From an uncultured Candidatus Saccharibacteria bacterium (lineage in GTDB: Bacteria; Patescibacteriota; Minisyncoccia; Phycocordibacterales; DATDWN01), in assembly GCA_964551495.1 (NCBI GenBank), contig CAZKCA010000002.1:19648-83647 (forward strand): a DNA stretch of 64,000 bases. Direction: 5' to 3'. A program made the position numbers and the translations under genes. Positions 5,769 through 43,885 of the stretch are shown here, piece by piece; position 1 is the first letter of the stretch, and every line of letters starts with the position of its first letter. The notes beneath the pieces are model-generated. The model had not been told where the DNA came from. It worked only from the letters and a program-made list of their open reading frames with translations, and searched no databases.

Positions 5769-5776
5769 AGTAATAG

Positions 5777-5808
5777 AAAAACCCGCGCCAAGGTGGGAGG
5801 CGCGGGTT
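5777..5808 (-). terminator. GC-rich hairpin terminator for the minus-strand 196-aa ORF
   Basis: ACCCGCGCC (5781-5789) pairs with GGCGCGGGT (5799-5807). A T-run follows only on the minus strand. Confidence 0.6.
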
Positions 5809-5821
5809 GCGAAGAATCCTT

Positions 5822-6412
5822 TCATTCTTCAGTGTTGGTCTTGCATGGCAAGACCGGACAGATCCCGAAGGGGCGATCAGGGAACTTCTTGCAAAACCTT
5901 TTCAAGGTGGTCACAGTGATTCCTTTCTCGTCACTGTAGACTGTGAGGAATTCTCCTCGATGTTTTTGCGGACAAACAAGTCCGCTTTCGGCGTATCGAA
6001 TTCGTGGAGATTTCACTCCTCTGGATCTTTGGATTGCAAAGGATGCAGTTTCTGAAAACAGATACTGCATAACAGTTTGACATTTGAAAGAATGAAATTG
6101 TTCAGGAGTCCCTCTGAACTCAGGATGAATTTCAAATCCGAAAGGAAAACAAACTATTTCCTCTTCGGAAGAAGGGTCAACCTCGATTCCGTTGTCAACA
6201 TTTATGATGACGCCGAAATTTATCAGAAACAGGTCCAGCGCATCAGCAAAATGAAGCCTGGATGTCACAACTGGCTCTGCTTTGTCAAAGTAGGCCAGGG
6301 TATGGTTTCTCACAGAGATCGAATGGGGAACTCGTAGATTTTCCCCAAATAGATCAAGAATGCTTGTAATTCTTGTTGGCCATCCACCAACTAAGGCGAC
6401 AGCAGCTGACAT
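5822..6412 (-). CDS. hypothetical protein, GC-elevated accessory gene
   Basis: 196-aa ORF with no family recognised by eye. It is visibly more GC-rich than its flanks and has its own terminator. The antisense ORFs at 5807..6055 and 6077..6337 are shadows of it. Confidence 0.5.
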   Translation of the reverse strand: MSAAVALVGGWPTRITSILDLFGENLRVPHSISVRNHTLAYFDKAEPVVTSRLHFADALDLFLINFGVIINVDNGIEVDPSSEEEIVCFPFGFEIHPEFRGTPEQFHSFKCQTVMQYLFSETASFAIQRSRGVKSPRIRYAESGLVCPQKHRGEFLTVYSDEKGITVTTLKRFCKKFPDRPFGICPVLPCKTNTEE

Positions 6413-6481
6413 TGTTGTTTCCTTTCTTTTTCCCTGCTATCAGGGAATTCTTATTAAAATTTACAATTTTTTGTCTGTATG

Positions 6482-6529
6482 TGTCAACACTTATCCACTG
6501 TTGACTTGTTAACTATAAAAATGTAAACT
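6482..6529 (+). promoter_or_regulatory. putative promoter with overlapping inverted-repeat operator for the efflux/MarR operon
   Basis: GTCAACA (6483-6489), N9, TGTTGAC (6499-6505). TTGACT (6501-6506), 17 nt, TAAACT (6524-6529). AGGAG SD sits before ATG 6543. Confidence 0.45.
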
Positions 6530-6542
6530 TTTAGGAGTATTT

Positions 6543-7835
6543 ATGAAATCGGCAGAATTGACTAAAAAGAGAGAGAAAAGATTTGATAAATTTAAAACCT
6601 CCATATCTCTTGGTTTCTTTTTGGCTATAAGACAAATAAAAAGAAGTAGTATTGGAACTACTGCGCTTATTGTTTTTGTGATGACACTAACATTTCTAAA
6701 CCTTGTCGTTGTTTATGGTATTTTGGTTGGACTAATACAGGGTTCTGTTGATGTTTACAAAGAAAAATTTTATGGAGATGTAAATATTTCGTCTTTGCCC
6801 AGAAAAGAATACATAGAAAAAAGCCCTGAAATAATTGAAATAGTTAAAGGTTTGCCTTGGCTGGAATCATATTCTGCAAGATACACAAAAAGTGGAACAG
6901 TAGAAGGGACTTATAAAGAAAGAATAGACTATACAGAAAAAGCAAATATAGCAGGAGGAATATTGACTGGGATTGATCCAGAAAAAGAAGATGCCACAAC
7001 TGAAATATCAAAATTTGTTGTAGAAGGACGATATCTAACTCGAGAAGATTCTGACGGGGTTATTTTGGGAGCCAATACACTCAAAAAATATTTAGATATT
7101 GATGCACCAGAACTTCCTCTTTTGGAAAACGTAGAAGTTGGGGACAAAGTTAGGATTATTGTTGGTGATTATACAAAAGAAGTTACGGTTATTGGTGTCA
7201 TAAAAAGTAAAGCAGATTTCGATCAGAGAATTGTAATGCTTGATACTACACTTAGAAATCTTATAGGAAGAACAGATTATAACGTAAATGAAATAGCTAT
7301 CAGAACAAAACCTTTTACTGATCCTTATTTGGTAAAAAATGCATTGATGCAAAGTGGAGTAGGGGAAACAGCTTTGGTTCAAACTTTTGAGGAAGGTTTG
7401 CCAAAATTTTTGAAAGATATTCAAGCAACTTTTGGACTTTTGGGTAATGTAGTTGGATCTATTGGTTTAGTAGTCGCCTCCATTACAATATTTATTGTTA
7501 TTTATATAAACGCTATTACTCGCAGAAAGTTTATTGGTATTTTGAAAGGTATAGGTATAGATTCAATAGCAATAGAATTTTCCTACATACTACAATCTCT
7601 ATTTTATGCAGTCATGGGTATTCTTTTAGGAATGACTATTCTATACGGATTTTTGGTTCCTTATATAGACGCAAATCCTATAAACTTCCCATTTAGTGAT
7701 GGTATTTTGGTTGCAAATTTGGGAGAAACTTTGATTAGAGCCGGACTTTTGCTTATCGCAACAATATTTGCTGGATTTATACCTGCGCGATTGGTCGTAA
7801 AACAAAATACATTAGATGCTATTTTAGGAAGATAA
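6543..7835 (+). CDS. ABC transporter permease, FtsX/MacB-like
   Basis: 430 aa with an N-terminal TM, a large extracytoplasmic domain and three C-terminal TMs (FtsX-type topology). It is directly followed by an ATPase gene. Confidence 0.85.
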   Translation: MKSAELTKKREKRFDKFKTSISLGFFLAIRQIKRSSIGTTALIVFVMTLTFLNLVVVYGILVGLIQGSVDVYKEKFYGDVNISSLPRKEYIEKSPEIIEIVKGLPWLESYSARYTKSGTVEGTYKERIDYTEKANIAGGILTGIDPEKEDATTEISKFVVEGRYLTREDSDGVILGANTLKKYLDIDAPELPLLENVEVGDKVRIIVGDYTKEVTVIGVIKSKADFDQRIVMLDTTLRNLIGRTDYNVNEIAIRTKPFTDPYLVKNALMQSGVGETALVQTFEEGLPKFLKDIQATFGLLGNVVGSIGLVVASITIFIVIYINAITRRKFIGILKGIGIDSIAIEFSYILQSLFYAVMGILLGMTILYGFLVPYIDANPINFPFSDGILVANLGETLIRAGLLLIATIFAGFIPARLVVKQNTLDAILGR

Positions 7836-7840
7836 AATTT

Positions 7841-8530
7841 ATGGAAGAAATAATAAAAGTAAAAGGATTGGTTAAATCATATAAAAGCGGAGATTCAGAG
7901 CTGGTTGTTTTGAAAGATTTAGATTTGTCTGTTCCAAAAGGCCAATTTATCTCTATCACCGGTAAATCTGGTTCTGGTAAGTCAACTCTTCTTTATCAGT
8001 TGGGTCTTTTGGATCATCCAAATAAAGGTCTGATAATAATAGATGGTGTTGATATTAGTGATTTGGATGCAGAAGATAGGACAGATTTTAGACTTTCAGA
8101 ATTGGGCTATGTTTTCCAAGACTATGCCTTGATACCGGAATTAACTTCTATGGAAAATGTTATGCTACCTCTACTTATGCAAGGATTAACAATCAAAGAA
8201 GCCACAAAAAAAGCAAAAGACTCTTTAGAAAGAATTGGGCTTGGTGATAAAGTTAATAACTTACCAAGTCAGCTTTCTGGAGGACAACAACAGAGAGTTT
8301 CTATAGCTAGAGCCATAGCCCATGATCCAAAAATAATTTTTGCAGATGAACCTACTGCAAATTTGGATACTGAAACCTCAAAATCTGTCTTGGATGCTTT
8401 TTTGGATTTACATAAACAAGGACAAACTATAGTTATGGTAACTCACGAAAAAGAATATGCAGATTTAACAGATAGGGTTGTGTTGTTAAGTGATGGAAAA
8501 ATTATGTCAGATTTAATGAATAAAAAATAA
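7841..8530 (+). CDS. ABC transporter ATP-binding protein (MacB/LolD-type)
   Basis: Walker A GKSGSGKST, signature LSGGQQQRVSIARA and Walker B IIFADEPT. Confidence 0.95.
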   Translation: MEEIIKVKGLVKSYKSGDSELVVLKDLDLSVPKGQFISITGKSGSGKSTLLYQLGLLDHPNKGLIIIDGVDISDLDAEDRTDFRLSELGYVFQDYALIPELTSMENVMLPLLMQGLTIKEATKKAKDSLERIGLGDKVNNLPSQLSGGQQQRVSIARAIAHDPKIIFADEPTANLDTETSKSVLDAFLDLHKQGQTIVMVTHEKEYADLTDRVVLLSDGKIMSDLMNKK

Positions 8531-8532
8531 TT

Positions 8533-10071: not shown

Positions 10072-10096
10072 ATTTTTTGTCTCTATTTTTAAAATT

Positions 10097-19420: not shown

Positions 19421-19633
19421 ATGAATCTTCAACAAGGGGACATTGTCGAAGCCAGGATTCCGACAAATAACCATTTTGCGGGAGATGGATACACTAAAGC
19501 AAAAGTCTTGGAGGTCATCTCTCAAGATGAAGTTTTGCTCAGAATCTCAGCTTTTGGCGACACAGTCATTGCTCCAGAGAACAAATGTCACTTTGTTCTC
19601 CATGGATACGCTTACAACAAGCGCCCTGCCTAA
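19421..19633 (+). CDS. hypothetical 70-aa protein (GC-elevated mini-gene)
   Basis: It has a strong SD and its own promoter-like signal, and its stop codon is embedded in a GC hairpin terminator. No family was recognised. Confidence 0.55.
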   Translation: MNLQQGDIVEARIPTNNHFAGDGYTKAKVLEVISQDEVLLRISAFGDTVIAPENKCHFVLHGYAYNKRPA

Positions 19634-19644
19634 GGGCGCTTTTA
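19621..19644 (+). terminator. rho-independent terminator
   Basis: GCGCCCT-gccta-AGGGCGC followed by TTTT. Confidence 0.7.
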
Positions 19645-19691
19645 CACTGTAATTTTTATTATAAATTTGATAGTATGGGGTAGATAAACAT

Positions 19692-21086: not shown

Positions 21087-21105
21087 AAATTGATATAATG
21101 ATTCT

Positions 21106-21837
21106 GTGAACGAAAACTCATACACAGTTAAAACAGAGATATTTGAAGGTCCACTGGACACTTTGCTTGGTCTTATAGAAAAAAGAAAATTATTTATAAA
21201 TGATATATCTTTAGCTCAGGTGGCTGATGATTTTATAGCTTATGTTAAAAACTTAGGTGATTTTCCTATGGCAGAATCAGCCAATTTTATATTGATAGCA
21301 TCTACTTTGGTTTTAATTAAATCTAAATCTTTATTGCCCAATCTTACTTTATCTCAAGAAGAAGAACAAAGTATAGATGATCTACAAGATAGATTGAAAG
21401 AACACCAAAAATATAAAAGATTAGGAGAAAGTCTTTTAAAGATTTTCAATAAAAAAAATTTATATATAAAATTACCACCTAAACAAACAAAAGTTTTGTT
21501 TGTTCCAGACGAAAGAATTAATTTAAAAAGATTGTATGAAGGTATAATGGGGGTTATATCTCAAATACCTAAAGTTGAAAATTTACCAAAAACCGTGGTT
21601 CAAAAAGTTATCAGTTTAGAAGAAATGATAGAAAATCTCACAGACAGAATAACAAAAAGTTTCAAAATGAGTTTTAAAGATTTCTCTGGAATAGGCAAAG
21701 AAGACAAAGTAAATGTTATAGTAAGTTTTCTGGCTATGTTAGAATTAGTAAAACAGGGAATTATACAAGTTAAACAAGATAGAGCTTTAGACGATATAGA
21801 AATAGAAACAAACAGTGTTAGTGTTCCAAGATATTAA
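21106..21837 (+). CDS. scpA: segregation and condensation protein A
   Basis: FEGPLDTLLGLIEKRKLFINDISLAQVADDF is a typical ScpA N-terminus. The start codon is GTG. Confidence 0.9.
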   Translation: MNENSYTVKTEIFEGPLDTLLGLIEKRKLFINDISLAQVADDFIAYVKNLGDFPMAESANFILIASTLVLIKSKSLLPNLTLSQEEEQSIDDLQDRLKEHQKYKRLGESLLKIFNKKNLYIKLPPKQTKVLFVPDERINLKRLYEGIMGVISQIPKVENLPKTVVQKVISLEEMIENLTDRITKSFKMSFKDFSGIGKEDKVNVIVSFLAMLELVKQGIIQVKQDRALDDIEIETNSVSVPRY

Positions 21838-21838
21838 T

Positions 21839-22378
21839 ATGGATATAAATTTAATTTCAAAAAAAATAGAGGCCGTTCTTTTTTATCTATCAGAACCAGT
21901 AGATATTAAAAGATTATCTAAAATACTAGAAGTTTCTACAGAACAAATAGTTGAGGCGGTTAAAATACTAAATGATTTATACCAAGACAGAGGGATAAGT
22001 CTTATCATTCACGGTAATGAAATATCTTTAGTCACATCAAATAGCGTAACTGAAACAATAGATAAACTAATCCAAGATGAACAAAAAAGAGATATTGGCA
22101 AAGCGGGAATAGAAACCTTGGCTATAATAGCTTATAAAGGAACGGTTTCAAGAAGAGAGATTGAGTATATAAGAGGAGTAAATTGCCAATTTGCCCTAAG
22201 AAACCTACTAATAAGAGGACTTATAGATAAAAAACCATCTGAAACAGATGAAAGAATAATGCTTTATACTATAACTATGGATGCCTTGATGCATTTGGGT
22301 ATAAAAAATATAGAAGAATTACCAGAATATGATAAAGTAAAAAGAGAGATCGATATTTCACCAGAAATAGAAGAATAA
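21839..22378 (+). CDS. scpB: segregation and condensation protein B
   Basis: IEAVLFYLSEPVDIKRLSKIL and TLAIIAYKGTVSRREIEYIRGV. I chose the start at ATG 21839. The ORF-track start at 21815 overlaps scpA. Confidence 0.9.
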   Translation: MDINLISKKIEAVLFYLSEPVDIKRLSKILEVSTEQIVEAVKILNDLYQDRGISLIIHGNEISLVTSNSVTETIDKLIQDEQKRDIGKAGIETLAIIAYKGTVSRREIEYIRGVNCQFALRNLLIRGLIDKKPSETDERIMLYTITMDALMHLGIKNIEELPEYDKVKREIDISPEIEE

Positions 22379-22387
22379 AAATAATTT

Positions 22388-23338: not shown

Positions 23339-23341
23339 ATT

Positions 23342-25189: not shown

Positions 25190-25221
25190 GTATAGATAAT
25201 ATTTTGCTATAATAGTATTCA

Positions 25222-26277: not shown

Positions 26278-26283
26278 ATTTTA

Positions 26284-27384: not shown

Positions 27385-28508
27385 AAATATTGCTCACAGG
27401 AGGAGGATCAGGTGGACACTTTTATCCGATTATAGCCATAGCCCAAGAAATACACTCTTTAGTAAAAGAAAATAAATTGGTTAAACCCGAAATTTATTTT
27501 ATGTCTACAGATCCTTACAACGAAGGATTACTTTATGAAAATGACATAATATTTAAAAAGGTTACTTCTGGAAAAATAAGAAGATATTTTTCTTTGATGA
27601 ATTTTTTTGACCTATTCAAAATATTTTGGGGAAGTCTTAAAGCCCTGTGGCTTGTTTTTAGAATCTATCCTGATGTGGTTTTTGGAAAAGGTGGATTTGC
27701 CAGTTTTCCGGCGTTATTTTCTGCTTGGATATTAGGTATACCAATTGTTATCCATGAGTCAGATATAGTTCCAGGTAAAGTAAATGCATGGGTTGGAAAA
27801 TTTGCAAAAAGAATAGCTGTCTCGTATCCAGAATCTGTTGATTATTTCCCAAAAAACAAAACTGCTTATACGGGCAATCCAATAAGAAAAGAAATTATGG
27901 AACCCCAAAATACTGGCTCACATGAATTCTTACAACTAAACGAAACAATACCTACAATACTAGTCTTAGGAGGCTCCCAAGGTGCCCAAAAAATAAATGA
28001 TCTAATAATAGATGCTCTTCCATATTTGGTAAAAAATTATCAAGTTATACATCAAACAGGTAAAAACAACATAAAAATAATTAAAGAAACTGCAGATGTT
28101 GTGCTTTTAAACAACCCAAACAAAGACAGATACAGACCTTATGATTACTTAGACTTGTTAACCATTAGAATGGCCGCTGGGGCTTCAGATATAATCGTAT
28201 CTAGGGCTGGATCTACTATATTTGAAATAGCTAGTTGGGCCAAACCGAGTATATTGATACCTATCACTAAATCAAATGGAGATCACCAGAGAAAAAATGC
28301 ATACTCTTATGCTAGAGCCGGTGGATGTGTTGTTATAGAAGAAAAAAACCTAACATCAAATATACTTCTAGCTGAAATAAATAGAATTTTACAAAACCCA
28401 AATGAAAAAGACAAAATGATAGAGTCGGCCAAGAAATTTTCTAGAAGAGATGCTGCTAAACTAATAGCTAAAGAAATACTATCAATTGGATTAAAGCACG
28501 AAGAATAA
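27381..28508 (+). CDS. murG: UDP-N-acetylglucosamine--N-acetylmuramyl-(pentapeptide) pyrophosphoryl-undecaprenol N-acetylglucosamine transferase
   Basis: TGGGSGGHFYPIIAIA N-terminus, GGSQGA and SRAGSTIFE. It overlaps ftsW by 4 nt. Confidence 0.92.
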   Translation: MKILLTGGGSGGHFYPIIAIAQEIHSLVKENKLVKPEIYFMSTDPYNEGLLYENDIIFKKVTSGKIRRYFSLMNFFDLFKIFWGSLKALWLVFRIYPDVVFGKGGFASFPALFSAWILGIPIVIHESDIVPGKVNAWVGKFAKRIAVSYPESVDYFPKNKTAYTGNPIRKEIMEPQNTGSHEFLQLNETIPTILVLGGSQGAQKINDLIIDALPYLVKNYQVIHQTGKNNIKIIKETADVVLLNNPNKDRYRPYDYLDLLTIRMAAGASDIIVSRAGSTIFEIASWAKPSILIPITKSNGDHQRKNAYSYARAGGCVVIEEKNLTSNILLAEINRILQNPNEKDKMIESAKKFSRRDAAKLIAKEILSIGLKHEE

Positions 28509-28510
28509 CC

Positions 28511-29968
28511 ATGTCCGAAAAAAATAAAATTGTAACAAGATTTGCCCCTTCACCAACTGGATTTATGCACGTTGGCGGTGTTAGAACTGCATTATATGCA
28601 TGGCTTTTAGCTAAAAAAAATAATGGTCATTTTATATTAAGAATAGAAGATACTGATAAAGAAAGGGAAGTACCTGGGTCTATAGAACACATAAAAGAGT
28701 CTTTGCGATGGTTAAAACTTGATTGGGACAAAGGACCAGATAAAGAAGATCAAATTTCTTATATTCAATCAGAAAGATTGGATTTATACAAAAAATATGC
28801 CGAACAATTAATAGAAAAAGGGCTGGCTTTTGCGGATCCATATTCTCCAGAAGAGTTGGATAATTTAAGAAAAAAAGCAGAAGAAAATAAACTACCTTTT
28901 TTGTATAGAAATCATAGACCAGAAAATCCTCCAAAATGGGATGGCTCACAACCTTTAAGATTTAAAATATCGGACATAGAAAAAACTGAATGGAAAGATT
29001 TGGTATGGGGTGAACTATCTGCTGGACCTGATGCTTTGGATGATTTTATTATTATAAAAAGTGATGGCTATCCTACTTATAATTTTGCTCATATAGTCGA
29101 TGATATAGAAATGGGTGTCACACATGTTGTTAGAGGCCAAGAATTCATCTCTTCCGTCCCAAAGTTTTTAGCACTTTATAAGGCTTTAGATATTGACCCT
29201 CCTTACTTTGTAACAACTCCACCAATCATGGCGGCAGATGGAAAAAAGAAATTAGGCAAAAGAGATGGAGCAAAAGATATACTTGAATATAAAAAAGAAG
29301 GTTATTTACCAGAGGCCATGATAAACTTTCTTGCTCTTTTGGGTTGGAATCCAGGAGATGACAGAGAAATATTCTCAATAGAAGAATTGATACAAACATT
29401 CAGTGTAGATGGGATACAAAGATCTGGAGCACGATGGAACGATCAAAAATTAAATTGGATAAACAAAGAGTTTTTGAAAAAACTTCCACAAGAAGAGATC
29501 CAAAAAGAAATTCAAGATAAATTATTGGAAAATAATAAAACCAAAAATTTTGAACTAGTAAAAGATAAGGAATTCATTTCAAAAATTTCCTCAATAATTT
29601 TTGACCGAATAGATAAATGGTCAGATATAAATAACCTGATTGAAGAAGGGGAGTTACAGTATTTCTTTGATAAACCAAGCTATAGTATTGATAAACTCAT
29701 ATGGAAGGAGTCTAACAAAGAGGACACTAAAAAATATTTACTAAAAATTTCTGAGCTTTTGAATAATTCAAATAATTTTTCTAATATAGAAGATATAAAA
29801 AATATCATATTTGATTATGCCACAGAACAGGGTAGGGGATCTGTTTTATGGCCTTTAAGATTTGCTTTATCAGGAAAAGAAAAAAGTCCAGATCCATTTA
29901 CTTTGATATATATATTAGGAAAAGAAGAATCCTTAGATAGAGTAGCTAAAGCTATAGAAAGTTTGTAA
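28511..29968 (+). CDS. gltX: glutamate--tRNA ligase
   Basis: RFAPSPTGFMHVGGVRTALY (HIGH-type) and KLGKRDG (KMSKS-type). Confidence 0.95.
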   Translation: MSEKNKIVTRFAPSPTGFMHVGGVRTALYAWLLAKKNNGHFILRIEDTDKEREVPGSIEHIKESLRWLKLDWDKGPDKEDQISYIQSERLDLYKKYAEQLIEKGLAFADPYSPEELDNLRKKAEENKLPFLYRNHRPENPPKWDGSQPLRFKISDIEKTEWKDLVWGELSAGPDALDDFIIIKSDGYPTYNFAHIVDDIEMGVTHVVRGQEFISSVPKFLALYKALDIDPPYFVTTPPIMAADGKKKLGKRDGAKDILEYKKEGYLPEAMINFLALLGWNPGDDREIFSIEELIQTFSVDGIQRSGARWNDQKLNWINKEFLKKLPQEEIQKEIQDKLLENNKTKNFELVKDKEFISKISSIIFDRIDKWSDINNLIEEGELQYFFDKPSYSIDKLIWKESNKEDTKKYLLKISELLNNSNNFSNIEDIKNIIFDYATEQGRGSVLWPLRFALSGKEKSPDPFTLIYILGKEESLDRVAKAIESL

Positions 29969-31233
29969 TGAATAAATATGTACTTACATTTATAATTTTA
30001 ATAATATTTTTTGGATTCAGGTATTCTTTTGCTGATACTGTTTCTGAATTACAAAATAAAATAGAAGATAGATCAAAACAAATACAAGAAATAGAAGAGG
30101 AAATAAAACAATACACCGAGGAGGTAAATAGAATAAATAAACAATCTAAAACACTATCTAACGCAATAAAAAGTTTAGATACTACTCAAAAGAAAATAAG
30201 TGCTGATTTAAACTTAACCACTCAAAAAATAAACCGAGCAGAATTAACCATAGAACAACTTAACAACGAAATATATAATACTGGAATCAAACTATCTAAA
30301 AATAGAGAAATTGTAGCTAATACAATAAGAACAATAAACCAAGCTGATGAACTAAGTTTAATTTCGCTTGTTTTTTCAGGAAAAAGCATAACTGAAGTTT
30401 GGGAAGATTTAGATTCAATTAAAAAACTTCAATATGAAGTAAGAAACCAATCTAACGAGTTAACCATGATAAAAAAAGAAATGGAAGACAAAAATTTAAG
30501 TTTGGTTAATCAAAAAAGAGAACTGACAAATTATCAAGGTGATCTTGTTGGCCAAAGACAAGTAATTGAGGAGAATAAAAAAGAAAAAAGTAACTTATTG
30601 AATCAGACAAAAAATCAGGAACAAGCATACCGAACACTAATTGAAGAAAAAGAAAGAGAAAAGGATCAATTTGAAAAAGAATTATTTGAATATGAGTCTC
30701 AATTAAAGATATTTATAGACCCAACAGGATACCCTAGTCCAAGAAATGGAATTTTATCTTGGCCGTTAGACAATGTCTACATAACTCAATCTTTTGGTAG
30801 AACAGTTGCTGCTCAAAGACTTTATGTTTCTGGATCACACAACGGAGTAGATTTTAGAGCTAGTATTGGAACAAAGGTTAAATCTGTTTTAGATGGAGTA
30901 GTAGTTGGCACAGGAAATACAGATGCTTATCGCGGATGCTACTCTTTCGGTAAATGGGTAATGGTAAAACATCCTAATGGTCTTTCTACTATATATGCAC
31001 ACCTCTCTGTTATATCAGTATCTCCTGGGGTAGAAGTTAGAACTGGAGATACAATAGGTTTTACTGGTAATACAGGATACTCTACTGGCCCACACCTACA
31101 CCTAGGACTTTATGCTACCCAAGGAGTAAGAATTGAAAAACATGCAACCAGTAGGGGATGTAAGGAGGCAACAATGCCACTGGCAGATATAAAAGCATAC
31201 TTAGATCCTCTACCTTATTTACCTGCACTATAA
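29968..31233 (+). CDS. M23 family peptidoglycan metalloendopeptidase with N-terminal coiled coil
   Basis: Signal/TM, a long coiled-coil region, then HNGVDF...GNTGYSTGPHLHLG (LytM/M23 motifs). Confidence 0.88.
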   Translation: MNKYVLTFIILIIFFGFRYSFADTVSELQNKIEDRSKQIQEIEEEIKQYTEEVNRINKQSKTLSNAIKSLDTTQKKISADLNLTTQKINRAELTIEQLNNEIYNTGIKLSKNREIVANTIRTINQADELSLISLVFSGKSITEVWEDLDSIKKLQYEVRNQSNELTMIKKEMEDKNLSLVNQKRELTNYQGDLVGQRQVIEENKKEKSNLLNQTKNQEQAYRTLIEEKEREKDQFEKELFEYESQLKIFIDPTGYPSPRNGILSWPLDNVYITQSFGRTVAAQRLYVSGSHNGVDFRASIGTKVKSVLDGVVVGTGNTDAYRGCYSFGKWVMVKHPNGLSTIYAHLSVISVSPGVEVRTGDTIGFTGNTGYSTGPHLHLGLYATQGVRIEKHATSRGCKEATMPLADIKAYLDPLPYLPAL

Positions 31234-31266
31234 AACCCTCCCTACTTTTTCAAGTGGGAGGGTTTT
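31232..31266. terminator. bidirectional hairpin terminator
   Basis: AAAACCCTCCC...GGGAGGGTTTT. Confidence 0.7.
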
Positions 31267-31363
31267 GTTCTTTATCATCTTTTAATGCTACGTAGTATAA
31301 AGCAAGAACCGTTATAAAAAGACAAAATAGAGCTGTTAACACTAAGGCCATATCAGGATTCAT
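31250..31363 (-). CDS. possible 37-aa single-TM peptide, translationally coupled (ATGA overlap) to the upstream 147-aa ORF
   Basis: My translation is MNPDMALVLTALFCLFITVLALYYVALKDDKEQNPPT. The ATG (31363..31361) overlaps the TGA (31362..31360) of the preceding gene. It is not in the ORF track because it is under 60 aa. Confidence 0.3.
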   Translation of the reverse strand: MNPDMALVLTALFCLFITVLALYYVALKDDKEQNPPT

Positions 31364-31803
31364 TTTCTCACCTTCAATAAAAAGTCGAGAGCGTCCATTA
31401 CGGCCTTGAATTTTTCAAGTGAACAAGACCTTACAAAATCACCCTGTTCTATATTTTCAAAAAAAGATAAAACTTTACTTATAGAATACAGATGATTATC
31501 ATAAAAACCTTCTTTGTTCCTAATGTTCATATTCTTATGAATACTTTTTAGTTTTTTATGATAGATTTTAATTAGTCTAACAAGACATTTATATTCTTCT
31601 CCTCCGTGGATAAAATAAGGTTTATTGCCTATAATAAAATCCACCTCTGCTTCATTTCTAATAAACAAGATTAGAAGCTTTATCTTTTTTAGATCTTCCT
31701 TAGATTCTGTTATCTTTTTCAGCGGATCATAATTAGAATCTCTAATCATTACTAACATTAAAAGACAGAGAACTAAAACAAAGAAAACCACAATGAAGAA
31801 CAT
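31360..31803 (-). CDS. hypothetical membrane-anchored protein
   Basis: 147 aa with an N-terminal TM. AGGAGG SD lies 7 nt before the ATG. No family was recognised. Confidence 0.5.
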   Translation of the reverse strand: MFFIVVFFVLVLCLLMLVMIRDSNYDPLKKITESKEDLKKIKLLILFIRNEAEVDFIIGNKPYFIHGGEEYKCLVRLIKIYHKKLKSIHKNMNIRNKEGFYDNHLYSISKVLSFFENIEQGDFVRSCSLEKFKAVMDALDFLLKVRK

Positions 31804-31924
31804 CTCAAACCCTCCTAAGCGAAAGATTATAATAAAAAAGCAATTAAGTCAATTTCATTATTTTATCTTTTTTAATAAAAATTGTTATAATATAAACATA
31901 TTTAATTAGTTAAAAAATAAAAAT

Positions 31925-32179: not shown

Positions 32180-32204
32180 TAAAATAAGTAAGATGCCCAA
32201 TAAA

Positions 32205-32241
32205 AAATAAACACAGCATATTTTTGCTGTGTTTATTTTTT
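32205..32241 (+). terminator. rho-independent terminator
   Basis: AAATAAACACAGCA-tatttt-TGCTGTGTTTATTT followed by a T-run. Confidence 0.75.
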
Positions 32242-32602
32242 GATACCTAAAATAAAGGGTAGGGGACTTCCCTATTGGGAATAGAAAATTAGTCACTAAA
32301 TCTTTTTATGAGATAAAAGATATTTGACGTATTAGGGGAATAGATAAATATACACGATAAACTAATAATCATAATAAAAATAAACAAATTACATTGAACA
32401 AATTGTTTAAAAGATCAATAAATTATTTTAATAGATTTAAAGAACTTTCTCTCTTATATAGAGTGACCAAAGATATATTGTGCGACGTATAATGTATTTA
32501 TTCCCCTCTGTAAATAAAGACCTTAAATGCAAACTTGAAAATAAAAAATAAATGGAAAAACTCCCTACCCTGTGGTAGTATGGTCCTCGGAGGAATGGAG
32601 AA

Positions 32603-32665
32603 ATGCAGAACAACTACTTTGATCCCCTGGAATTTGAAAAAGGCGGCCGACTTATATCAAATTAA
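32603..32665 (+). CDS. possible 20-aa upstream ORF MQNNYFDPLEFEKGGRLISN, coupled (TAATG) to the next ORF
   Basis: GGAGG (32589-32593) lies 9 nt upstream of ATG 32603. The stop TAA at 32663-32665 overlaps ATG 32665. Confidence 0.25.
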   Translation: MQNNYFDPLEFEKGGRLISN

Positions 32666-33027
32666 TGATTGTTATAATTATTATTTCAATAATACCCCTA
32701 ATGATCTTCGTACAATCTTCTATGAAGTCACTTAGGCAAGACCAGAACAAAGTAAGTTGGATAATGGAAACTAAATTAGAACAAATTGGGCCCTACCACT
32801 ACGTAGGATATGCCAAAGAAAACGGAAAAGAAGGTATCCGAGTTGTTACAATCAACTTAGTAGATTGTCCTAAAGAGTTTAAGTTTCGATTTCCTAAAAA
32901 AGGAGATTTTGTCCGTGTTGAACTTTACAAACAAGAAGAAATAGCAGAGACAAAATCTGGAGACCTTATACTCACCCTTCCTAAAGATTTTATAAAAATG
33001 GGAATACTAGATCCTCAATGTAAATGA
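32665..33027 (+). CDS. hypothetical protein with N-terminal hydrophobic anchor
   Basis: 120 aa (MIVIIIISIIPLMIFVQSS...). No family was recognised. A terminator follows. Confidence 0.5.
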   Translation: MIVIIIISIIPLMIFVQSSMKSLRQDQNKVSWIMETKLEQIGPYHYVGYAKENGKEGIRVVTINLVDCPKEFKFRFPKKGDFVRVELYKQEEIAETKSGDLILTLPKDFIKMGILDPQCK

Positions 33028-33037
33028 CACCAAACTC

Positions 33038-33059
33038 AAAGCCCCTAATCGGGGCTTTT
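33038..33059 (+). terminator. rho-independent terminator
   Basis: AAAGCCCC-taatc-GGGGCTTT. Confidence 0.75.
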
Positions 33060-33101
33060 CTTTATTCAAAAAATGTGATAATTTTTTGTTTGGAGGCGCC
33101 G

Positions 33102-33200
33102 GTGACATTAAAAGAATTGGCGATCGGTTGTCTGACTGGTCTTGCTGTTTTTTCAATAATGACAGCGGCTAGCATAATGTTTTTTCTGAAATGGAGGTGA
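33102..33200 (+). CDS. candidate 32-aa hydrophobic peptide (GTG start) MTLKELAIGCLTGLAVFSIMTAASIMFFLKWR
   Basis: GGAGG (33092-33096) lies 5 nt before GTG 33102. An extended -10 TGtGATAAT is at 33074-33082. The stop TGA overlaps the SD region of the next peptide. Confidence 0.4.
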   Translation: MTLKELAIGCLTGLAVFSIMTAASIMFFLKWR

Positions 33201-33205
33201 CAGGC

Positions 33206-33274
33206 ATGTTTTCCAACGAACAAACCGTTTATGCACTCATTGTCCTTGCCTGGGCAATAACATTTCTTTTCTAA
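33206..33274 (+). CDS. candidate 22-aa hydrophobic peptide MFSNEQTVYALIVLAWAITFLF
   Basis: GGAGG (33193-33197) lies 8 nt before ATG 33206. A terminator follows 9 nt after the stop. Confidence 0.4.
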   Translation: MFSNEQTVYALIVLAWAITFLF

Positions 33275-33282
33275 CCCACAAC

Positions 33283-33304
33283 AAAAGCCCCTTTCGGGGC
33301 TTTT
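33283..33304. terminator. bidirectional terminator
   Basis: AAAAGCCCC-tttc-GGGGCTTTT. Confidence 0.75.
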
Positions 33305-33314
33305 ATCGTGAATA

Positions 33315-33755: not shown

Positions 33756-33966
33756 ACTAACTACTGTAAATTGTAAAATAAGACTTCTGTTAAGTTATAA
33801 TTCTGAAATTTACTCGGAGAAATGAAAACTCAGTAAATTACTGAGTATGTATATATTATAGCACCTTATGATTTATTTGTCAAAGCAAAACACACAAATT
33901 GGACCTTGAAAAGGGTTATAAAACCTATATTTTAAGCCATTTATTATCTTTTTTTATATAAACAAT

Positions 33967-33990: not shown

Positions 33991-34017
33991 ATAAGTTATG
34001 CACTAATTCCCTACCCT

Positions 34018-37239: not shown

Positions 37240-37240
37240 G

Positions 37241-37783: not shown

Positions 37784-37886
37784 AATAAAATTATATATTG
37801 TTTCTAGCTAGTTAGCCAATTATAGCTATGTAAAACTGTGTAAAACTGAAGACCACAAAAATACAAAAAGTAAACCTGTGGAAAAC

Positions 37887-37915
37887 TTGACTTTTTTTAA
37901 AAAATAGTCTATGGT
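37887..37915 (+). promoter_or_regulatory. putative promoter of the beta-barrel gene
   Basis: TTGACT (37887-37892), 17 nt, TATGGT (37910-37915). Confidence 0.5.
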
Positions 37916-37964
37916 GGAGTCAGACAGCCTTGCTGTTCTATCTTTTAGATTCGGAGGCTTCGAG

Positions 37965-38612
37965 GTGAAAAAGTTTGTCTCGCTCTTTGCAATCCTTTTG
38001 GCGATCGTACTCGCGACCGCCTCCATGAACGCTCAAGAAAACCGCAAGGTTGCCTTTTATGCTATCGGTGCTGGTAGCATCGATAGTGGATCTTCTTCCA
38101 GCAACATCAGCGGACTTGGCACCCAAGTGGGTGCTGGTGTCGACATCAATCCTGAGGGCTTTGGCCTTGGACTACGGTTTACCAACGGCTCCCCTGTGGA
38201 CCAAAGCTTCAGTCGAGGCTTTGATAACCTTCCTCCGTGGTATACGGGGCAAGTTCCTCAAGCCAACTATAGGACCGAAAACAGAAGCCGAGTCTTCTCA
38301 GCAATGTTCCAGAAAGGGTTCGGCAACCAAAAAGCCAAACTTATTCTGGGTGCTGGACCAGGAGTTCTGCTAACCCGTTCAAACATCACGGAAAGTTACA
38401 CCGGTGTACCGGCAAACTTTCCTTTTGGAGACACTTCCACAAGAAGTTTCTCTAACAAGCAGAACACTTTTGTCGGCACCTTCGGCGCCACAATTGTCGT
38501 CCGAGGAGGAAAAAACTTCGACTTTCGGTTCGGGGTTCAATATCTCCGAGGATTTACCGGAGAAAAACAGTCTTTCATTATGCCCGTTGGCGGTGCCGGC
38601 GTTGGCTTCTAG
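37965..38612 (+). CDS. outer-membrane-protein-like 8-strand beta-barrel protein (OmpX/OmpW/PF13505-like pattern), strongly GC-elevated
   Basis: GGAGG lies 7 nt before GTG 37965. Signal peptide VKKFVSLFAILLAIVLATASMNAQE. Amphipathic strands alternate (KVAFYAIGAG, GTQVGAGVDI, GLGLRFTNG, RVFSAMFQKGF, KLILGAGPGVLL, FVGTFGATIVVR, FDFRFGVQYLRG, SFIMPVGGAGVGF). The terminal Phe matches the OMP C-terminal signature. Confidence 0.6.
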   Translation: MKKFVSLFAILLAIVLATASMNAQENRKVAFYAIGAGSIDSGSSSSNISGLGTQVGAGVDINPEGFGLGLRFTNGSPVDQSFSRGFDNLPPWYTGQVPQANYRTENRSRVFSAMFQKGFGNQKAKLILGAGPGVLLTRSNITESYTGVPANFPFGDTSTRSFSNKQNTFVGTFGATIVVRGGKNFDFRFGVQYLRGFTGEKQSFIMPVGGAGVGF

Positions 38613-38640
38613 TTCTTCCCGCCCCTTGGGGCGGACAAAG

Positions 38641-38691
38641 AAATCCCATAATTTGGGCTTCCACGTGGAAGCTCCAGATTATGGGATTTTT
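38641..38691 (+). terminator. two-tier hairpin terminator after the beta-barrel gene
   Basis: AAATCCCATAAT...ATTATGGGATTT (12 bp) encloses the 16-nt palindrome GCTTCCACGTGGAAGC and is followed by a T-run. Additional hairpins lie at 38619-38634 and 38704-38724. Confidence 0.7.
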
Positions 38692-38731
38692 CTATTACAC
38701 TAAGTGTCAAGGGGCATCCTTGACATATTTT

Positions 38732-39211: not shown

Positions 39212-39252
39212 ATAAATATATTATACAGACAAAACAAAAAGAAAAAAGGAGG

Positions 39253-40335: not shown

Positions 40336-40370
40336 ATTTTTATTATAGTTTTTTTGGTTGATTAGTATAC

Positions 40371-40398
40371 TTGACTAGAGCCAATTTTCTGGTAATGT
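40371..40398 (+). promoter_or_regulatory. putative promoter of the 82-aa accessory ORF
   Basis: TTGACT, 16 nt, TAATGT. GGAGG at 40406-40410. Confidence 0.45.
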
Positions 40399-40414
40399 TT
40401 GGTCTGGAGGAAAA

Positions 40415-40663
40415 ATGTTCACAATCATTTTGGATAGAAATAGAACCATTGAATTTGGTGAATTTGAATCTATAGAAAAGGCACAGGAACTTTTAAAAGA
40501 TAAGGGGTGGGAACAAATCAATCTTAATAACTTTATTGTAAGAACACGATATCGTTCTTATTCTGCTCAGATCATAAGAGCAAACGAAAGGAAACCTCAC
40601 ACAGACTTGCCAACCAGATCAAACTATAGTTCAAATCCCCACGACAGTGAAATGATAATTTGA
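40415..40663 (+). CDS. hypothetical 82-aa protein
   Basis: It has its own promoter-like signal, a GGAGG SD and a downstream hairpin (AGCCACGGT...ACCGCTGGCT followed by a T-run). No family was recognised. Confidence 0.5.
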   Translation: MFTIILDRNRTIEFGEFESIEKAQELLKDKGWEQINLNNFIVRTRYRSYSAQIIRANERKPHTDLPTRSNYSSNPHDSEMII

Positions 40664-40766
40664 ATCTAGGATTTCCTACAAAAGCCACGGTAACCACCGC
40701 TGGCTTTTTCTTTTATCCAACTTCCAACTTTAGATCAAAATAATTCTAACAAAAAAATAATTGAGT

Positions 40767-40896
40767 TTAAATGAAATCTCGTTGAGGCACTGTATTTTTG
40801 GAGACTTCGCAAGCGCGACGGCGCGAGACCGAGCAAAATTTCAGCAGAAATTTATGCGTGCTCCAAAAATACAGTGCCGAGAAAGAGATTTCATTT
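40767..40896 (+). repeat. nested-hairpin palindromic element, family 1, copy A
   Basis: 13-bp outer stem (TAAATGAAATCTC/GAGATTTCATTTA), internal loop, 18-bp perfect middle stem (GGCACTGTATTTTTGGAG) and a 57-nt core ACTTCGCAAGCGCGACGGCGCGAGACCGAGCAAAATTTCAGCAGAAATTTATGCGTG. Confidence 0.85.
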
Positions 40897-40915
40897 ATCA
40901 AAAATTTAGTAATCC

Positions 40916-42829: not shown

Positions 42830-42849
42830 AGTTTTTAGATTAAGTTAGG

Positions 42850-42980
42850 AATCAATAAATCCTTGCCTTGCCATACCTTTTGTGGAGCACGCATAAATTT
42901 CTGCTGAAATTTTGCTCGGTCTCGTGCCGTCGCACTTGCGAAGTCTCCACAAAAGGTACGACTTCGACGTGATTTATTGA
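42850..42980 (-). repeat. nested-hairpin palindromic element, family 1, copy B (inverted relative to the other copies)
   Basis: The reverse complement carries the same core with a compensatory pair change (GCGC..GCGC becomes GTGC..GCAC). It has unique outer (ATCAATAAATC) and middle stems. It lies 21 nt upstream of the dnaK ATG. Confidence 0.85.
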
Positions 42981-43024
42981 TAACAAATTTTTAAGATCGA
43001 ATAATTTAAGTAGATAAATTAAAT

Positions 43025-43161
43025 AATTCAAAACATTCGCAGGTTTTTGGCTGAAATAAAAGCGAGAAGCGCCAGCCGGAGACACTGTCTGAGCGTAGCG
43101 AGTTTGGCGAGAGGCCAGCTTTGAGTGCTTTATTTCACAAAAACCGAGGACGTTTTGAATT
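43025..43161 (+). repeat. nested-hairpin palindromic element, family 2, copy 1
   Basis: Outer stem AATTCAAAAC/GTTTTGAATT. Conserved unpaired ATTCGCAGG and CCGAGGAC. Inner stem TTTTTG..TGAAATAAA(A)GC / GCTTTATTTCACAAAAA. GC-rich centre. Confidence 0.7.
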
Positions 43162-43169
43162 GTTTACAT

Positions 43170-43478
43170 TTAGCTGATCTTATAGGATGGAGCGCGAGGT
43201 TTTGAACCTAAGAAAGATAGAATATTAAAATCAAAATATGGAGAAAGTATTTTATGATCTTTTTCTTTTTCTACCTCAAACTCAAAATTATCTTTAAGTG
43301 TCTCAAGACACAAAACTTCTTTATTTTCCAAACTTTCATCTAAGTAAACCACATTTAAAAGTCTAGCTTTTACTCTCCCGGATTCTTGGTACACACAAAA
43401 AGAGGCCCTGACAAGTCTTCCATCCTTGTCCCTCAAAACTTTTTCTATTAGATTGCCTCTAGGAGTTGTTATTTTCAT
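43170..43478 (-). CDS. hypothetical protein
   Basis: ORF-track 43170..43490 begins at TTG, so I prefer ATG 43478 (MKITTPRGN). A TATAAT lies on the minus strand at 43500..43495. No family was recognised. Confidence 0.5.
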   Translation of the reverse strand: MKITTPRGNLIEKVLRDKDGRLVRASFCVYQESGRVKARLLNVVYLDESLENKEVLCLETLKDNFEFEVEKEKDHKILSPYFDFNILSFLGSKPRAPSYKIS

Positions 43479-43523
43479 AATAGTTAACAAGTAAATTATA
43501 CCAAAGACTTCCCTATTGTGTAG

Positions 43524-43552
43524 TTGATTATAATATCAAAATGTGATATAAT
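43524..43552 (+). promoter_or_regulatory. putative promoter of the 101-aa ORF
   Basis: TTGATT, 17 nt, TATAAT with an extended TG (TGATATAAT). GGAGG at 43560-43564. Confidence 0.5.
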
Positions 43553-43570
43553 TAATAATGGAGGTCCGAA

Positions 43571-43876
43571 ATGGCTCTGAAAAAGAGATTGAAAGATATT
43601 GAGGCTTTACTTGCAATTTTAACACAAGGTTGGAGTGATCAAAAAATATTCCAAGAATCTATACCTCAATATTCAGCTCTTGATGATACTCACGAGTACA
43701 CATTAAACTACGGGTGGGCAGGTATTATTAACAACTTAGCAAAGTTACTAGGTTTTGAACCTTATATCAAAAAAGCTCATGAACCAACCATCACTTCAAG
43801 CAAATTAGATTCTCTAATAAGTGAAGCAGAATGTTTTATTGATTTTTTTGAGGAGAATACCAAAAGCGGCCAATAG
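43571..43876 (+). CDS. hypothetical 101-aa protein
   Basis: Strong promoter and SD. It converges on grpE. No family was recognised. Confidence 0.55.
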   Translation: MALKKRLKDIEALLAILTQGWSDQKIFQESIPQYSALDDTHEYTLNYGWAGIINNLAKLLGFEPYIKKAHEPTITSSKLDSLISEAECFIDFFEENTKSGQ

Positions 43877-43885
43877 GTCGCTTTT

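Follow-up and report, generated by a model that had tools for sequence, protein, structure and literature searches.

How are start codons marked in a bacterium whose core genes lack a Shine–Dalgarno (SD) sequence and whose small accessory genes carry a canonical one? The question is raised by a stretch of 64,000 nt, here called the window (positions 19,648 to 83,647 of contig CAZKCA010000002.1, assembly GCA_964551495.1), which was deposited as DNA of an uncultured Candidatus Saccharibacteria bacterium. The window is placed in Candidatus Paceibacterota (Parcubacteria), within the candidate phyla radiation (CPR) or Patescibacteria, and its nearest genome is JBAYWK01, with 83% identity between the tryptophanyl-tRNA synthetases (TrpRS). 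A preliminary description had drawn attention to −10-like hexamers 6–8 nt before the start codons of core genes, which it took as the mark of a largely leaderless genome, and to SD-led, GC-rich mini-genes, for which it suggested a foreign origin or membership in a distinct, highly translated regulon. The present analysis shows that the hexamers are promoters rather than ribosome sites and that they recur throughout the clade. By sequence comparison, the SD-led units appear to form the flexible, fast-evolving part of the genome, and we consider it probable that three start modes are divided between conserved and flexible genes.

Genes were called in the window (G+C 32%) and in related loci by a simple codon-usage rule for open reading frames (ORFs). 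About 60 Paceibacterota/Patescibacteria loci, among 80 loci found as relatives of the window trpS, served as the clade sample, and eight SD-using loci from the same set, from Fusobacteria and others, as controls. The 71 window genes fall into four classes of start context: 16 have a −10 box 5–9 nt before the start, 25 are tightly coupled to the preceding gene (gap below 19 nt), 11 have an SD, and 19 are unclear.

Promoters at the starts of core genes

All hexamers and starts named in the preliminary description were found where it had placed them, and its gene names agree with Pfam; its TTAATA before trpS is the TAATAT site shifted by one base. Boxes of the same kind also precede corA, L27, scpA, dnaJ, the methyltransferase gene at 15566 and the genes starting at 37783 and 39211 (Table 1). 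A strict box was defined as TAnnnT with at least five of six matches to TATAAT, and the test was restricted to genes with a spacer of at least 30 nt upstream (32 in the window, 486 in the clade). Eight of the 32 window genes carry a strict box at a spacing of 6–8 nt, compared with 1.3 ± 1.1 in dinucleotide-preserving shuffles (maximum 5 in 300) and with a mean of 1.5 strict boxes at other positions of the same upstream regions. In the clade the count rises to 94 of 486, against 13.5 ± 3.8 in shuffles, while in the controls it is 1 of 62, with no positional peak. Thus, the comparison with shuffled sequence by which the preliminary description had proposed to judge the spacing came out in its favor. 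Box starts peak at −14 to −12 in the window; in the clade the peak is sharp, with 55 boxes at −12 and 15–25 at −13 to −15 over a background of about 5 per position, and it is independent of the G+C of the locus (16–26% versus 1–4% background in all four G+C bins).

The consensus of the box is exactly TATAAT. When 212 motif genes are aligned on the hexamer, TG stands one base upstream in 106 of them, giving an extended −10, TTG appears at −23 to −21, that is, at 17-nt spacing, and a −35 match of at least four of six bases is present in 77, compared with about 30 in shifted controls. Because the TG, the TTG and the excess of −35 matches have no meaning in an mRNA, the TATAAT-like boxes before core starts are σ70 promoter elements and not ribosome sites. 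Divergently transcribed genes carry the box as often (23.8%) as do same-strand genes that lie 6 nt or more past the preceding stop; it stands before 23% of the same-strand genes at 6–19 nt, and its frequency falls to 5.9% at gaps of 5 nt or less, against 23–32% elsewhere. Given the 6–9 nt between box and ATG, transcription should start at the ATG or at most about 3 nt before it.

By the strict motif, the leaderless signal accounts for about 22–26% of the genes that are not tightly coupled, and by the relaxed motif, after subtraction of background, for about a third. The signal is therefore real and clade-wide, but “largely leaderless” is too strong a description: it covers no more than about a quarter to a third of the transcription units, the 25 internal genes cannot be leaderless, and some operon-first genes (dnaK, rpoA and YgaP) are leadered without an SD.

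The internal genes have no SD. GGAG or GAGG lies upstream of none of the 25 tightly coupled window genes and of 14 of 366 in the clade (3.8%, equal to background), versus 20 of 39 (51%) in the SD-using controls, and GC-rich Paceibacterota loci are as SD-free as AT-rich ones. Between −12 and −1 of coupled starts, G makes up 7–15% and A 43–54% (with maxima at −6 and −3), T reaches 47% at −1, and the stop–start gaps peak at +1 to +5 and at −4. The long operon that contains mraY (Table 1) is an example, with gaps of −23 to +9 nt, an A/T-rich upstream context and no GGAG or GAGG. From this arrangement, termination–reinitiation at coupled starts is likely. Among the 61 other genes of the window, the sole AGGAG (TAGGAG) precedes FtsX (6543), and this site has been lost from L088, the orthologous locus. 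Parcubacteria are often without bS21, and their bS1 is shortened to 3–4 domains (PMC9297842); a ribosome reduced in this way would be compatible with less reliance on SD pairing.

SD-led units and their variable coding parts

The preliminary description had listed ten mini-genes as preceded by a canonical GGAGG or AGGAGG, and in all ten GGAGG or AGGAG indeed lies 4–9 nt before the start (14731, 16306, 19421, 31803 on the minus strand, hereafter 31360 after its far end, 32603, 33102, 33206, 37965, 40415 and 43571). Intergenic GGAGG is followed by ATG or GTG and an ORF of at least 15 codons at 10 of 20 sites, versus 3 of 51 when the motif is permuted at equal composition (GGGAG, GAGGG, GGGGA and AGGGG), and this rate of 50% equals that in the SD-using control genomes. 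The units also differ from the core in codon usage: the pooled G+C at third codon positions (GC3) is 0.38, versus 0.205 ± 0.039 in the core, with a preference for C-ending codons that ribosomal-protein genes and dnaK do not share. “GC-rich” applies strongly to seven of the ten (GC3 0.36–0.51), whereas 31360, 40415 and 43571 are only mildly raised. Of the TTGAC(A/T)-type promoters and GC-clamp terminators that had been ascribed to most of these genes, the terminators are enriched as a class (22 GC-stem terminators between 31 and 45 kb versus 7.6 ± 3.5); individual promoters stand up, that at 16243–16270 scoring 12/12, but consensus promoter matches as a class do not exceed shuffles in these AT-rich regions, and the analysis therefore draws on single strong sites and on positional statistics.

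The products are diverse. A Pfam search of the accessory proteins brought only a YgaP-like transmembrane protein (31925, not SD-led) above thresholds. The stop of the 20-codon ORF at 32603 shares bases with the ATG (TAATG) of the ORF at 32665–33027, which encodes a membrane-anchored protein of 120 aa. The model of the 5822 protein (predicted local distance difference test, pLDDT, 44.8) was too poor for a structure search, and a relaxed-threshold Rfam search of 5300–6700 returned no family. The 37965 protein, with a GC3 of 0.51, has a signal peptide and a C-terminal Phe (...GVGF); its model consists of an N-terminal helix and 8–9 strands (pLDDT 67.5) and matches OmpA, Ail and OmpX at E values of 1e-6 to 1e-5 and template-modeling scores of 0.4–0.65, and the sequence gives a weak match to Pfam OMP_b-brl. 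This protein is thus predicted, from its modeled fold, to be an eight-stranded OmpA/OmpX/OmpW-like barrel. The CPR lineage is generally thought to be without an outer membrane, so that a barrel fold is unexpected. The 5′ untranslated region (5′UTR) of the same unit contains a conserved small hairpin (37923–37937) and a U-rich stretch, extending to 37946. The pair of tiny hydrophobic ORFs at 33102 and 33206, for which no homologs were found, is reminiscent of small membrane toxins or two-peptide systems.

The SD-led units are also set apart from the core by their poor conservation. Relative to the nearest relative (L003/L083), none of eight SD-led proteins reaches 60% identity and six have no match, whereas 26 of 31 SD-less genes are at least 60% identical. 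The nearest genome lacks six or seven of the units; three or four occupy conserved slots. The units 14731, 16306 with the prolyl oligopeptidase (POP) gene that follows it, and 19421 are clean insertions between conserved neighbors with respect to L003 and L092, the last of them between trpS and aspS; 43571, 32603/32665, 33102 and 33206 are absent from the four related loci L083–L086. The slots of 31360, 37965 and 40415 are syntenic in L083–L086, where the −35 and the SD are kept and the neighboring genes are 65–91% identical, and the slot of 5822 is likewise syntenic across species, with promoter and SD kept and GC3 raised. The slot proteins are barely alignable at 31360, 53–58% identical at 37965 and about 35% identical over 40–55 aa at 40415. 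The SD is retained as GGAGG or AGGAG at 37965, as GGAGG together with the −35 at 31360 (L083/L084), and as an invariant TGGAGGA in five orthologous dnaJ–dnaK sequences at 40415, in which divergence begins right after the ATG. This conservation of the SD in orthologous slots argues that it is used.

Two slots illustrate how sharply coding part and signals have parted. When 40336–40915 is compared with L085 12946–13591, the promoter and SD (79 nt) and the terminator with the downstream sequence (269 nt) are about 92.5% identical, but the 82/99-aa ORF between them cannot be aligned as DNA, and the proteins share only a GPF-S..EAE.FL..GW core. The protein of 5822–6412 is 51% identical to that of L087 8001–8615, a locus from the same species as the window, while the flanks are 94–99% identical (proteins 98.5–100%, DNA 94–97%) and there is a single difference in the 110 nt of promoter and 5′UTR; the N-terminal half has effectively been replaced, and the C-terminal RPFGICPVLPCKT is invariant. 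Hypermutation of the diversity-generating retroelement type was considered for 5822 and rejected, since the divergence extends across the whole N-terminal half and there is no short adenine-specific variable region.

Searches for a source of the units gave little. For 37965, 5822, 19421 and the oligopeptidase clade, the families comprise 2–6 members, all from close CPR relatives (5.8 and 1.8 billion proteins searched). Four IMG/VR scans yielded no viral relatives, PHROG no hits except one marginal (E 0.008), and PADLOC none. The window holds no integrase, no tRNA (ARAGORN) and no mobility domains, and Rfam found no family at gathering thresholds across its whole length. A repeated mobile element carrying the cassettes was rejected, because all-against-all BLAST of nine cassette regions gave nothing and there are no flanking repeats; GC-rich Paceibacterota were rejected as SD-using donors, being as SD-free as the AT-rich ones. 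GGAGG-led ORFs with a GC3 far above that of the genome (z up to 12) were also seen in other AT-rich Paceibacterota loci (L011 at ~10686 and ~16822, L019 at 9120, L021 at 10747 and L025 at 3568), so that an SD may go together with deviant composition throughout the Paceibacterota.

Table 1. Positions of start signals, transcription units and leader modules (window coordinates unless another locus is named)
Feature	Position	Strand	Details
−10-like box TAGAAT, dnaB	803..808	−	7 nt to ATG 795; Pfam DnaB
TATAAT, corA	3193..3198	−	8 nt to ATG 3184; Pfam-supported
GATAAT, S41 peptidase	3251..3256	+	8 nt to ATG 3265; TTGACC 17 nt upstream; Pfam
TATCAT, methyltransferase	15554..15559	+	6 nt to ATG 15566
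TAATAT, trpS	18372..18377	+	7 nt to ATG 18385
TATAAT, scpA	21094..21099	+	6 nt to GTG 21106
TATAAT, extended −10 (TG one base upstream), mraY	25208..25213	+	8 nt to ATG 25222; Pfam
TATAAT, 180-aa gene	37790..37795	−	6 nt to ATG 37783; box kept in L083/L084
TATAAT, conserved 159-aa membrane protein	39220..39225	−	8 nt to ATG 39211
TATAAT, dnaJ	40342..40347	−	6 nt to ATG 40335; identical in four related loci
TATAAT, alaS	53321..53326	−	6 nt to ATG 53314; Pfam
TATAAA, mnmA	57246..57251	−	7 nt to ATG 57238; Pfam
SD-less coupled operon	21815..31233	+	scpB, S11 peptidase, asnB; then mraY, ftsW, murG, gltX, M23
Leadered unit, weak SD	5822..6487	−	TTGACA-17-TAAATT 6487..6458; AAGGAA 6424..6419; 196-aa ORFan 5822–6412, GC3 0.41
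SD-led unit	14721..14955	+	AGGAG 14721–14725; 61-aa four-CxxC zinc-ribbon ORF 14731–14916; terminator 14924–14955; absent from L003
POP leader	16243..16389	+	TTGACA-16-TATAAT 16243–16270; AGGAGG 16296–16301; 15-codon ORF MTDKPPHLPRPRPTK 16306–16353
Terminator of 16306 leader	16357–16382	+	GGGGGG/CCCCC+TTTT, starting 3–5 nt past the stop codon
Prolyl oligopeptidase S9A	16390..18354	+	654 aa, GC 0.24; ATG 7 nt past the terminator T-run; no SD or −10 of its own
Leader–POP module, window	16243–18354
Leader–POP module, L090	5800–7994
Leader–POP module, L091
Leader–POP module, L092	1280–3453
SD-led unit	19376..19643	+	TTTACA-16-TATCAT 19376–19403; GGAGG 19410–19414; 70-aa ORF 19421–19633, GC3 0.44; terminator 19620–19643
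SD-led two-gene unit	31250..31852	−	TTGACT..TATAAT 31852..31826; AGGAGG 31816..31811; 147-aa membrane-anchored ORF 31803..31360; overlapping 37-aa ORF 31363..31250
GGAGG-led unit	32589..33058	+	GGAGG 32589–32593; 20-codon upstream ORF 32603–32665; terminator 33038–33058
Tandem tiny hydrophobic ORFs	33092..33304	+	32 aa (GTG) 33102–33200; 22 aa 33206–33274; GGAGG before each; shared terminator 33283–33304
SD-led unit	37887..38726	+	TTGACT-17-TATGGT 37887–37915; GGAGG 37953–37957; 215-aa ORF (GTG) 37965–38612; terminator 38704–38726
SD-led unit between dnaJ and dnaK	40371..40709	+	TTGACT-17-TAATGT 40371–40398; TGGAGGA 40405–40411; 82-aa ORF 40415–40663; terminator 40680–40709
SD-led unit	43524..43885	+	TTGATT-17-TATAAT with TG 43524–43552; GGAGG 43560–43564; 101-aa ORFan 43571–43876; terminator 43862–43885

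Three further observations concern the neighborhood of these units. The region ~31000–33800, with four SD-led units, is the most variable 2.5 kb among the relatives (L083, L084 and L085 each have different genes there); it also coincides with a peak of cumulative GC skew and with a change of gene orientation from plus on the left to minus on the right, a terminus-like convergence. Next to it, 34018–37239 encodes a secreted repeat protein of 1073 aa that matches PA14 weakly; its gene lacks an SD and is coupled 1 nt past the preceding one. The G+C of 0.40 at 34–37 kb comes from the Gly/Ser/Thr-rich content of this protein, whose GC3 is 0.18, and so reflects amino-acid content rather than foreign DNA. 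Finally, an element of ~125 nt occurs three times (90–95% identity), flanking dnaK and upstream of grpE (40770–40894, 42879–42953 in inverted orientation, and 44526–44650). In two copies (40786–40878 and 44543–44633) a stem of 17–18 bp, GGCACTGTATTTTTGGAG / CTCCAAAAATACAGTGCC, encloses a GC-rich interior of 57 nt; the third (42842–42990) has a longer, imperfect 46-nt stem and a 57-nt interior, and the element is kept in L084–L086. It could serve as an operator of the heat-shock response or act as RNA; it is not a canonical CIRCE (controlling inverted repeat of chaperone expression) and has no Rfam hit.

A leader peptide upstream of a prolyl oligopeptidase

The SD-led ORF at 16306 ends in front of a strong terminator, beyond which lies the POP gene (Table 1). 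L003 does not have this module. When metagenomes were scanned for DNA that encodes DKPP[HY]LPRPRP, one further lineage was found, in the Parcubacteria GW2011_GWF2_39_8b-like assemblies L090 and L091, with the peptide MGYLYADKPGVDKPPHLPRPRPR, and the context of the closest POP homolog revealed a third, L092, with the peptide MTDKPPHLPQPRPQPRPQPPKK. The peptides, of 15–23 aa, share the core (T/V)DKPPHLP(R/Q)PRP (MTDKPPHLPRPRPTK in the window, ..GVDKPPHLPRPRPR in L090 and MTDKPPHLPQPRPQPRP.. in L092). All three lineages have the same layout, in which a promoter, AAAGGAG(G), the short ORF, a strong terminator hairpin with its U-run and POP follow one another; the terminator lies 3–12 nt past the leader stop, and POP starts 7–25 nt past the U-run. 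The POP proteins are 40–52% identical among the three lineages, with the next homologs at no more than 31%, and the peptide core is identical across the three loci with codons that differ at synonymous sites. Such identity, despite synonymous change and the divergence of POP, indicates that selection acts on the peptide. The public POP record of the L090 lineage (P0011, 703 aa) carries an apparently false N-terminal extension over the leader, whose ORF is unannotated.

The folding energy of the 16306 leader is well below that of shuffles (z −3.8), and no alternative fold provides an antiterminator common to the three leader sequences. The Pro-Pro codons of the leader (CCCCCU/CCUCCU) resemble an anti-SD and pair with the leader’s own SD in two of the three minimum-free-energy folds (16296–16325 in the window and 1352–1383 in L092), a possible self-sequestration of the ribosome site in these folding models.

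The core of the peptide also resembles oncocin, VDKPPYLPRPRPPRRIYNR, matching its residues 1–12 at 10–11 of 12 positions (Y6 to H), with the PRP motif included, and so agrees with the oncocin pharmacophore. Oncocin is a class I proline-rich antimicrobial peptide (PrAMP) that lies inverted in the ribosomal exit tunnel and halts ribosomes at the start codon; its PRP motif is described as essential for ribosome binding (PMC11678341). No paper containing the string DKPPHLP was found in the searchable literature. By analogy with tnaC and pyrBI, 16306 may be a cis-acting leader, in which progress or arrest of the ribosome on a proline-rich, tunnel-active peptide decides whether the terminator forms; this is the reading of the leader that we prefer, and we put its chances at about even. 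The peptide could instead be a trans-acting inhibitor, with POP as its processing or immunity enzyme. A broader reading, in which SD initiation would be a separate channel for fast-evolving interaction genes and one of its members the counterpart of insect class I PrAMPs, acting at the peptidyl-transferase center and tunnel, strikes us as speculative and rather unlikely. On that reading the peptide may be an arrest or sensor peptide that gates read-through, tnaC-like and induced by proline-rich peptides, or again a trans inhibitor processed or countered by POP. That the leader peptide shows neither a signal peptide nor a precursor speaks against counting it among the PrAMPs as such.

Model, alternatives and known systems

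Taken together, these data are consistent with a model of three start modes. Conserved operon-first genes would typically be transcribed from σ70-type promoters, many of which have an extended −10 (TGnTATAAT) together with a weak TTG as −35; since 6–8 (up to 9) nt separate the end of the −10 from the ATG, the 5′ end of the transcript would fall on the start codon or a few bases from it, and 70S ribosomes would presumably bind the 5′ AUG directly. SD-less downstream genes, which start 1–5 nt past the preceding stop or overlap it, in an A-rich, G-depleted context, would be translated by termination–reinitiation or by initiation on unstructured mRNA. The third mode would serve the roughly ten self-contained SD units of these 64 kb, each with its own promoter, a 5′UTR of 25–45 nt, a short ORF and a GC-stem terminator. 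Because a leadered, isolated short ORF could use neither a 5′ AUG nor coupling, it would need recruitment of the 30S subunit through the anti-SD. These units would constitute the flexible genome, as lineage-restricted ORFans, insertions, or slots with kept signals but a swapped or diverged coding part, and what they are predicted to encode differs in function, ranging from small secreted or membrane proteins through a zinc ribbon and an OmpA-like barrel to the upstream ORF of 32603 and the leader peptide of 16306. The last of these probably couples its own translation to terminator read-through before POP, and both 32603 and 16306 look like ribosome entry points for the SD-less genes that follow.

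Several points weigh against this model. The transcription starts are read from promoter geometry, and the box of scpA precedes a GTG, an unusual start for leaderless mRNAs. Neither Rfam nor motif searches found an rRNA in the window or in the 92 other loci of the analysis, so that anti-SD pairing is proposed from the mRNA side. Starts in the related loci rest on the simple ORF rule, although wrong starts would blur the positional peak and not create one. The smallest ORFs (32603, 33102 and 33206) are without comparative support, and 19 of the 71 window genes match none of the three modes cleanly. Moreover, GC3 is 0.44–0.54 in all orthologs of 37965 (L083 10001–10657; L084 10001–10648) in genomes of about 0.20; the model does not explain this persistence, for which a simple lack of amelioration is also inadequate.

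Other explanations account for parts of the evidence. Were the SD mini-genes recent horizontal acquisitions from GC-richer, SD-using donors, still bearing the promoter, SD, terminator and codon usage of the donor, then their pooled GC3 and C-ending codons, the clean insertions of 14731, 16306 with POP and 19421, the absence of 43571, 32603/32665, 33102 and 33206 from L083–L086, the raised GC3 of SD-led ORFs in other AT-rich Paceibacterota loci and even the outer-membrane fold predicted for 37965 would follow. Yet the searches gave no donor, only small families confined to close CPR relatives, no IMG/VR relatives, no PHROG or PADLOC support, and no integrase, tRNA, or repeats between or flanking the cassettes. 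GC-rich Paceibacterota, being SD-less too, are no obvious donors, and four syntenic slots in which signals are kept and GC3 stays high despite 35–58% protein identity are unlike unameliorated recent DNA. The foreign origin suggested in the preliminary description is thus borne out as far as deviant composition and the lack of a counterpart in the nearest relative for six of eight testable units are concerned, but not by any donor, viral relative or mobility gene; as sole explanation it is neither confirmed nor excluded, and we regard it as unlikely. The regulon proposed as its alternative, of highly or conditionally translated genes served when the cell shifts the balance between 30S, initiation factor 3 and anti-SD on one side and 70S and coupled initiation on the other, would fit the near-consensus SDs at optimal spacing, their retention in orthologous slots, the strong individual promoters and private terminators, and the distinct synonymous codon bias. 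But ribosomal proteins, dnaK and rpoA, whose expression should be high, share neither that bias nor the SD, no common operator or other motif unites the units, and their products are unrelated ORFans, two units being upstream or leader ORFs rather than end products; on this sequence evidence such a regulon seems quite unlikely.

At the level of single elements, the smallest units (32603, 33102, 33206 and perhaps 16306) might be small GC-rich RNAs in which ORF and GGAGG are incidental. GC-rich islands with promoter and terminator are typical of RNA genes in an AT-rich genome, the ORFs have only 15–32 codons, three of them are without homologs, and the 16306 leader folds unusually well; but Rfam gave no family at gathering thresholds over the window or at relaxed ones on 5300–6700, each ORF has a GGAGG at SD spacing, and the synonymous differences beneath the constant amino-acid core of 16306 speak for a translated product, which makes this very unlikely. 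It is more improbable still that the TATAAT-like motif works in the mRNA as an A/U-rich ribosome-binding element of the non-SD kind, as in group B of GeneMarkS-2, before genes that are not leaderless. The motif does occur before same-strand genes 6–19 nt past the preceding stop, and the upstream region is A-rich and G-poor even at internal genes; against this stand the promoter features of the box (TG in half the cases, TTG about 17 nt upstream and the −35 excess), its exact TATAAT consensus, its scarcity at gaps of 5 nt or less and its equal frequency at divergently transcribed genes. The three start modes thus remain the reading that we prefer.

If the pattern is genome-wide, it would affect the annotation of these genomes, both in the choice of start codons and for SD-led mini-ORFs and leader peptides, most of which lack annotation. 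Much of bacterial diversity belongs to the CPR/Patescibacteria, whose signals for gene expression are essentially undescribed. The pattern agrees with the reduced ribosome of the CPR, with its often missing bS21 and short bS1, and GGAGG at SD distance would flag flexible genes, those most likely to mediate interaction with host or phage. The oncocin-like leader with POP could represent a ribosome-directed peptide of a new kind, regulatory or inhibitory, which is testable in vitro with synthetic TDKPPHLPRPRPTK and GVDKPPHLPRPRPR.

Several known systems resemble parts of the locus. In GeneMarkS-2 group C, comprising Actinobacteria and Deinococcus-Thermus, a Pribnow box lies 6–8 nt from starts and 25–50% of transcription units are leaderless (PMC6028130). 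The operon-first genes of the window and clade have their Pribnow box at the same distance, and their share of a quarter to a third lies within that range. Group C differs, however, in that its non-leaderless genes carry an SD, which the internal and leadered core genes of the window do not (0 of 25; 3.8% in the clade), and the window belongs to an AT-rich, tiny CPR genome.

The SD-poor genomes of the Bacteroidota type (group B) have an A-rich, Kozak-like context, an anti-SD that is retained but sequestered, and few SD-led genes, such as rpsU. The near absence of the SD, the A-rich, G-depleted context (A maxima near −3 and −6) and a small minority of strong SDs recur in the window, and these genomes offer the closest analogy for an SD-free core with the SD confined to accessory units. 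The TATAAT motif is not common to first and internal genes, which share only the general A-rich, G-poor context. The window has promoters at leaderless distance before its operon-first genes, which are not known from the Bacteroidota, and its SD minority consists of fast-evolving accessory ORFans rather than an autoregulatory ribosomal-protein gene; bS21 itself is often absent in Parcubacteria (PMC9297842).

At 16306, the likeness is to leader-peptide attenuators and arrest peptides such as the trp and his leaders, pyrBI and tnaC: the unit has its own promoter and ribosome-binding site, five Pro among 15 codons before a proline-specific peptidase, an intrinsic terminator and a promoterless structural gene. 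It differs in that three sequences yield no conserved antiterminator and that the whole core, not the Pro codons only, is conserved, which would suggest sequence-specific action on the ribosome, as in tnaC, rather than simple sensing of codon supply. With the class I PrAMPs of Hemiptera (oncocin, Oncopeltus peptide 4, pyrrhocoricin and metalnikowin; PMC11678341) the peptide would share, to judge from sequence likeness, the N-terminal core with PRP, but it is encoded by a cytoplasmic CPR ORF of 15–23 codons, has neither signal nor pro-peptide, lacks the C-terminal RRIYNR and is always paired with POP.

The accessory units as a whole recall the islets and ORFan slots of flexible genomes, in which lineage-specific small genes lie between conserved ones and divergent alleles stand in near-identical flanks, as at 5822 and 40415. 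They differ in that the window is without mobility machinery and in that its flexible genes are marked by a different initiation signal from the core. We found no paper in the searchable literature that links leaderless or SD-free initiation to the CPR. The leaderless half of the pattern thus resembles group C, in a phylum for which we found no published description, and it departs from that group in two respects: the core is free of SDs, and the SD is confined to fast-evolving units.

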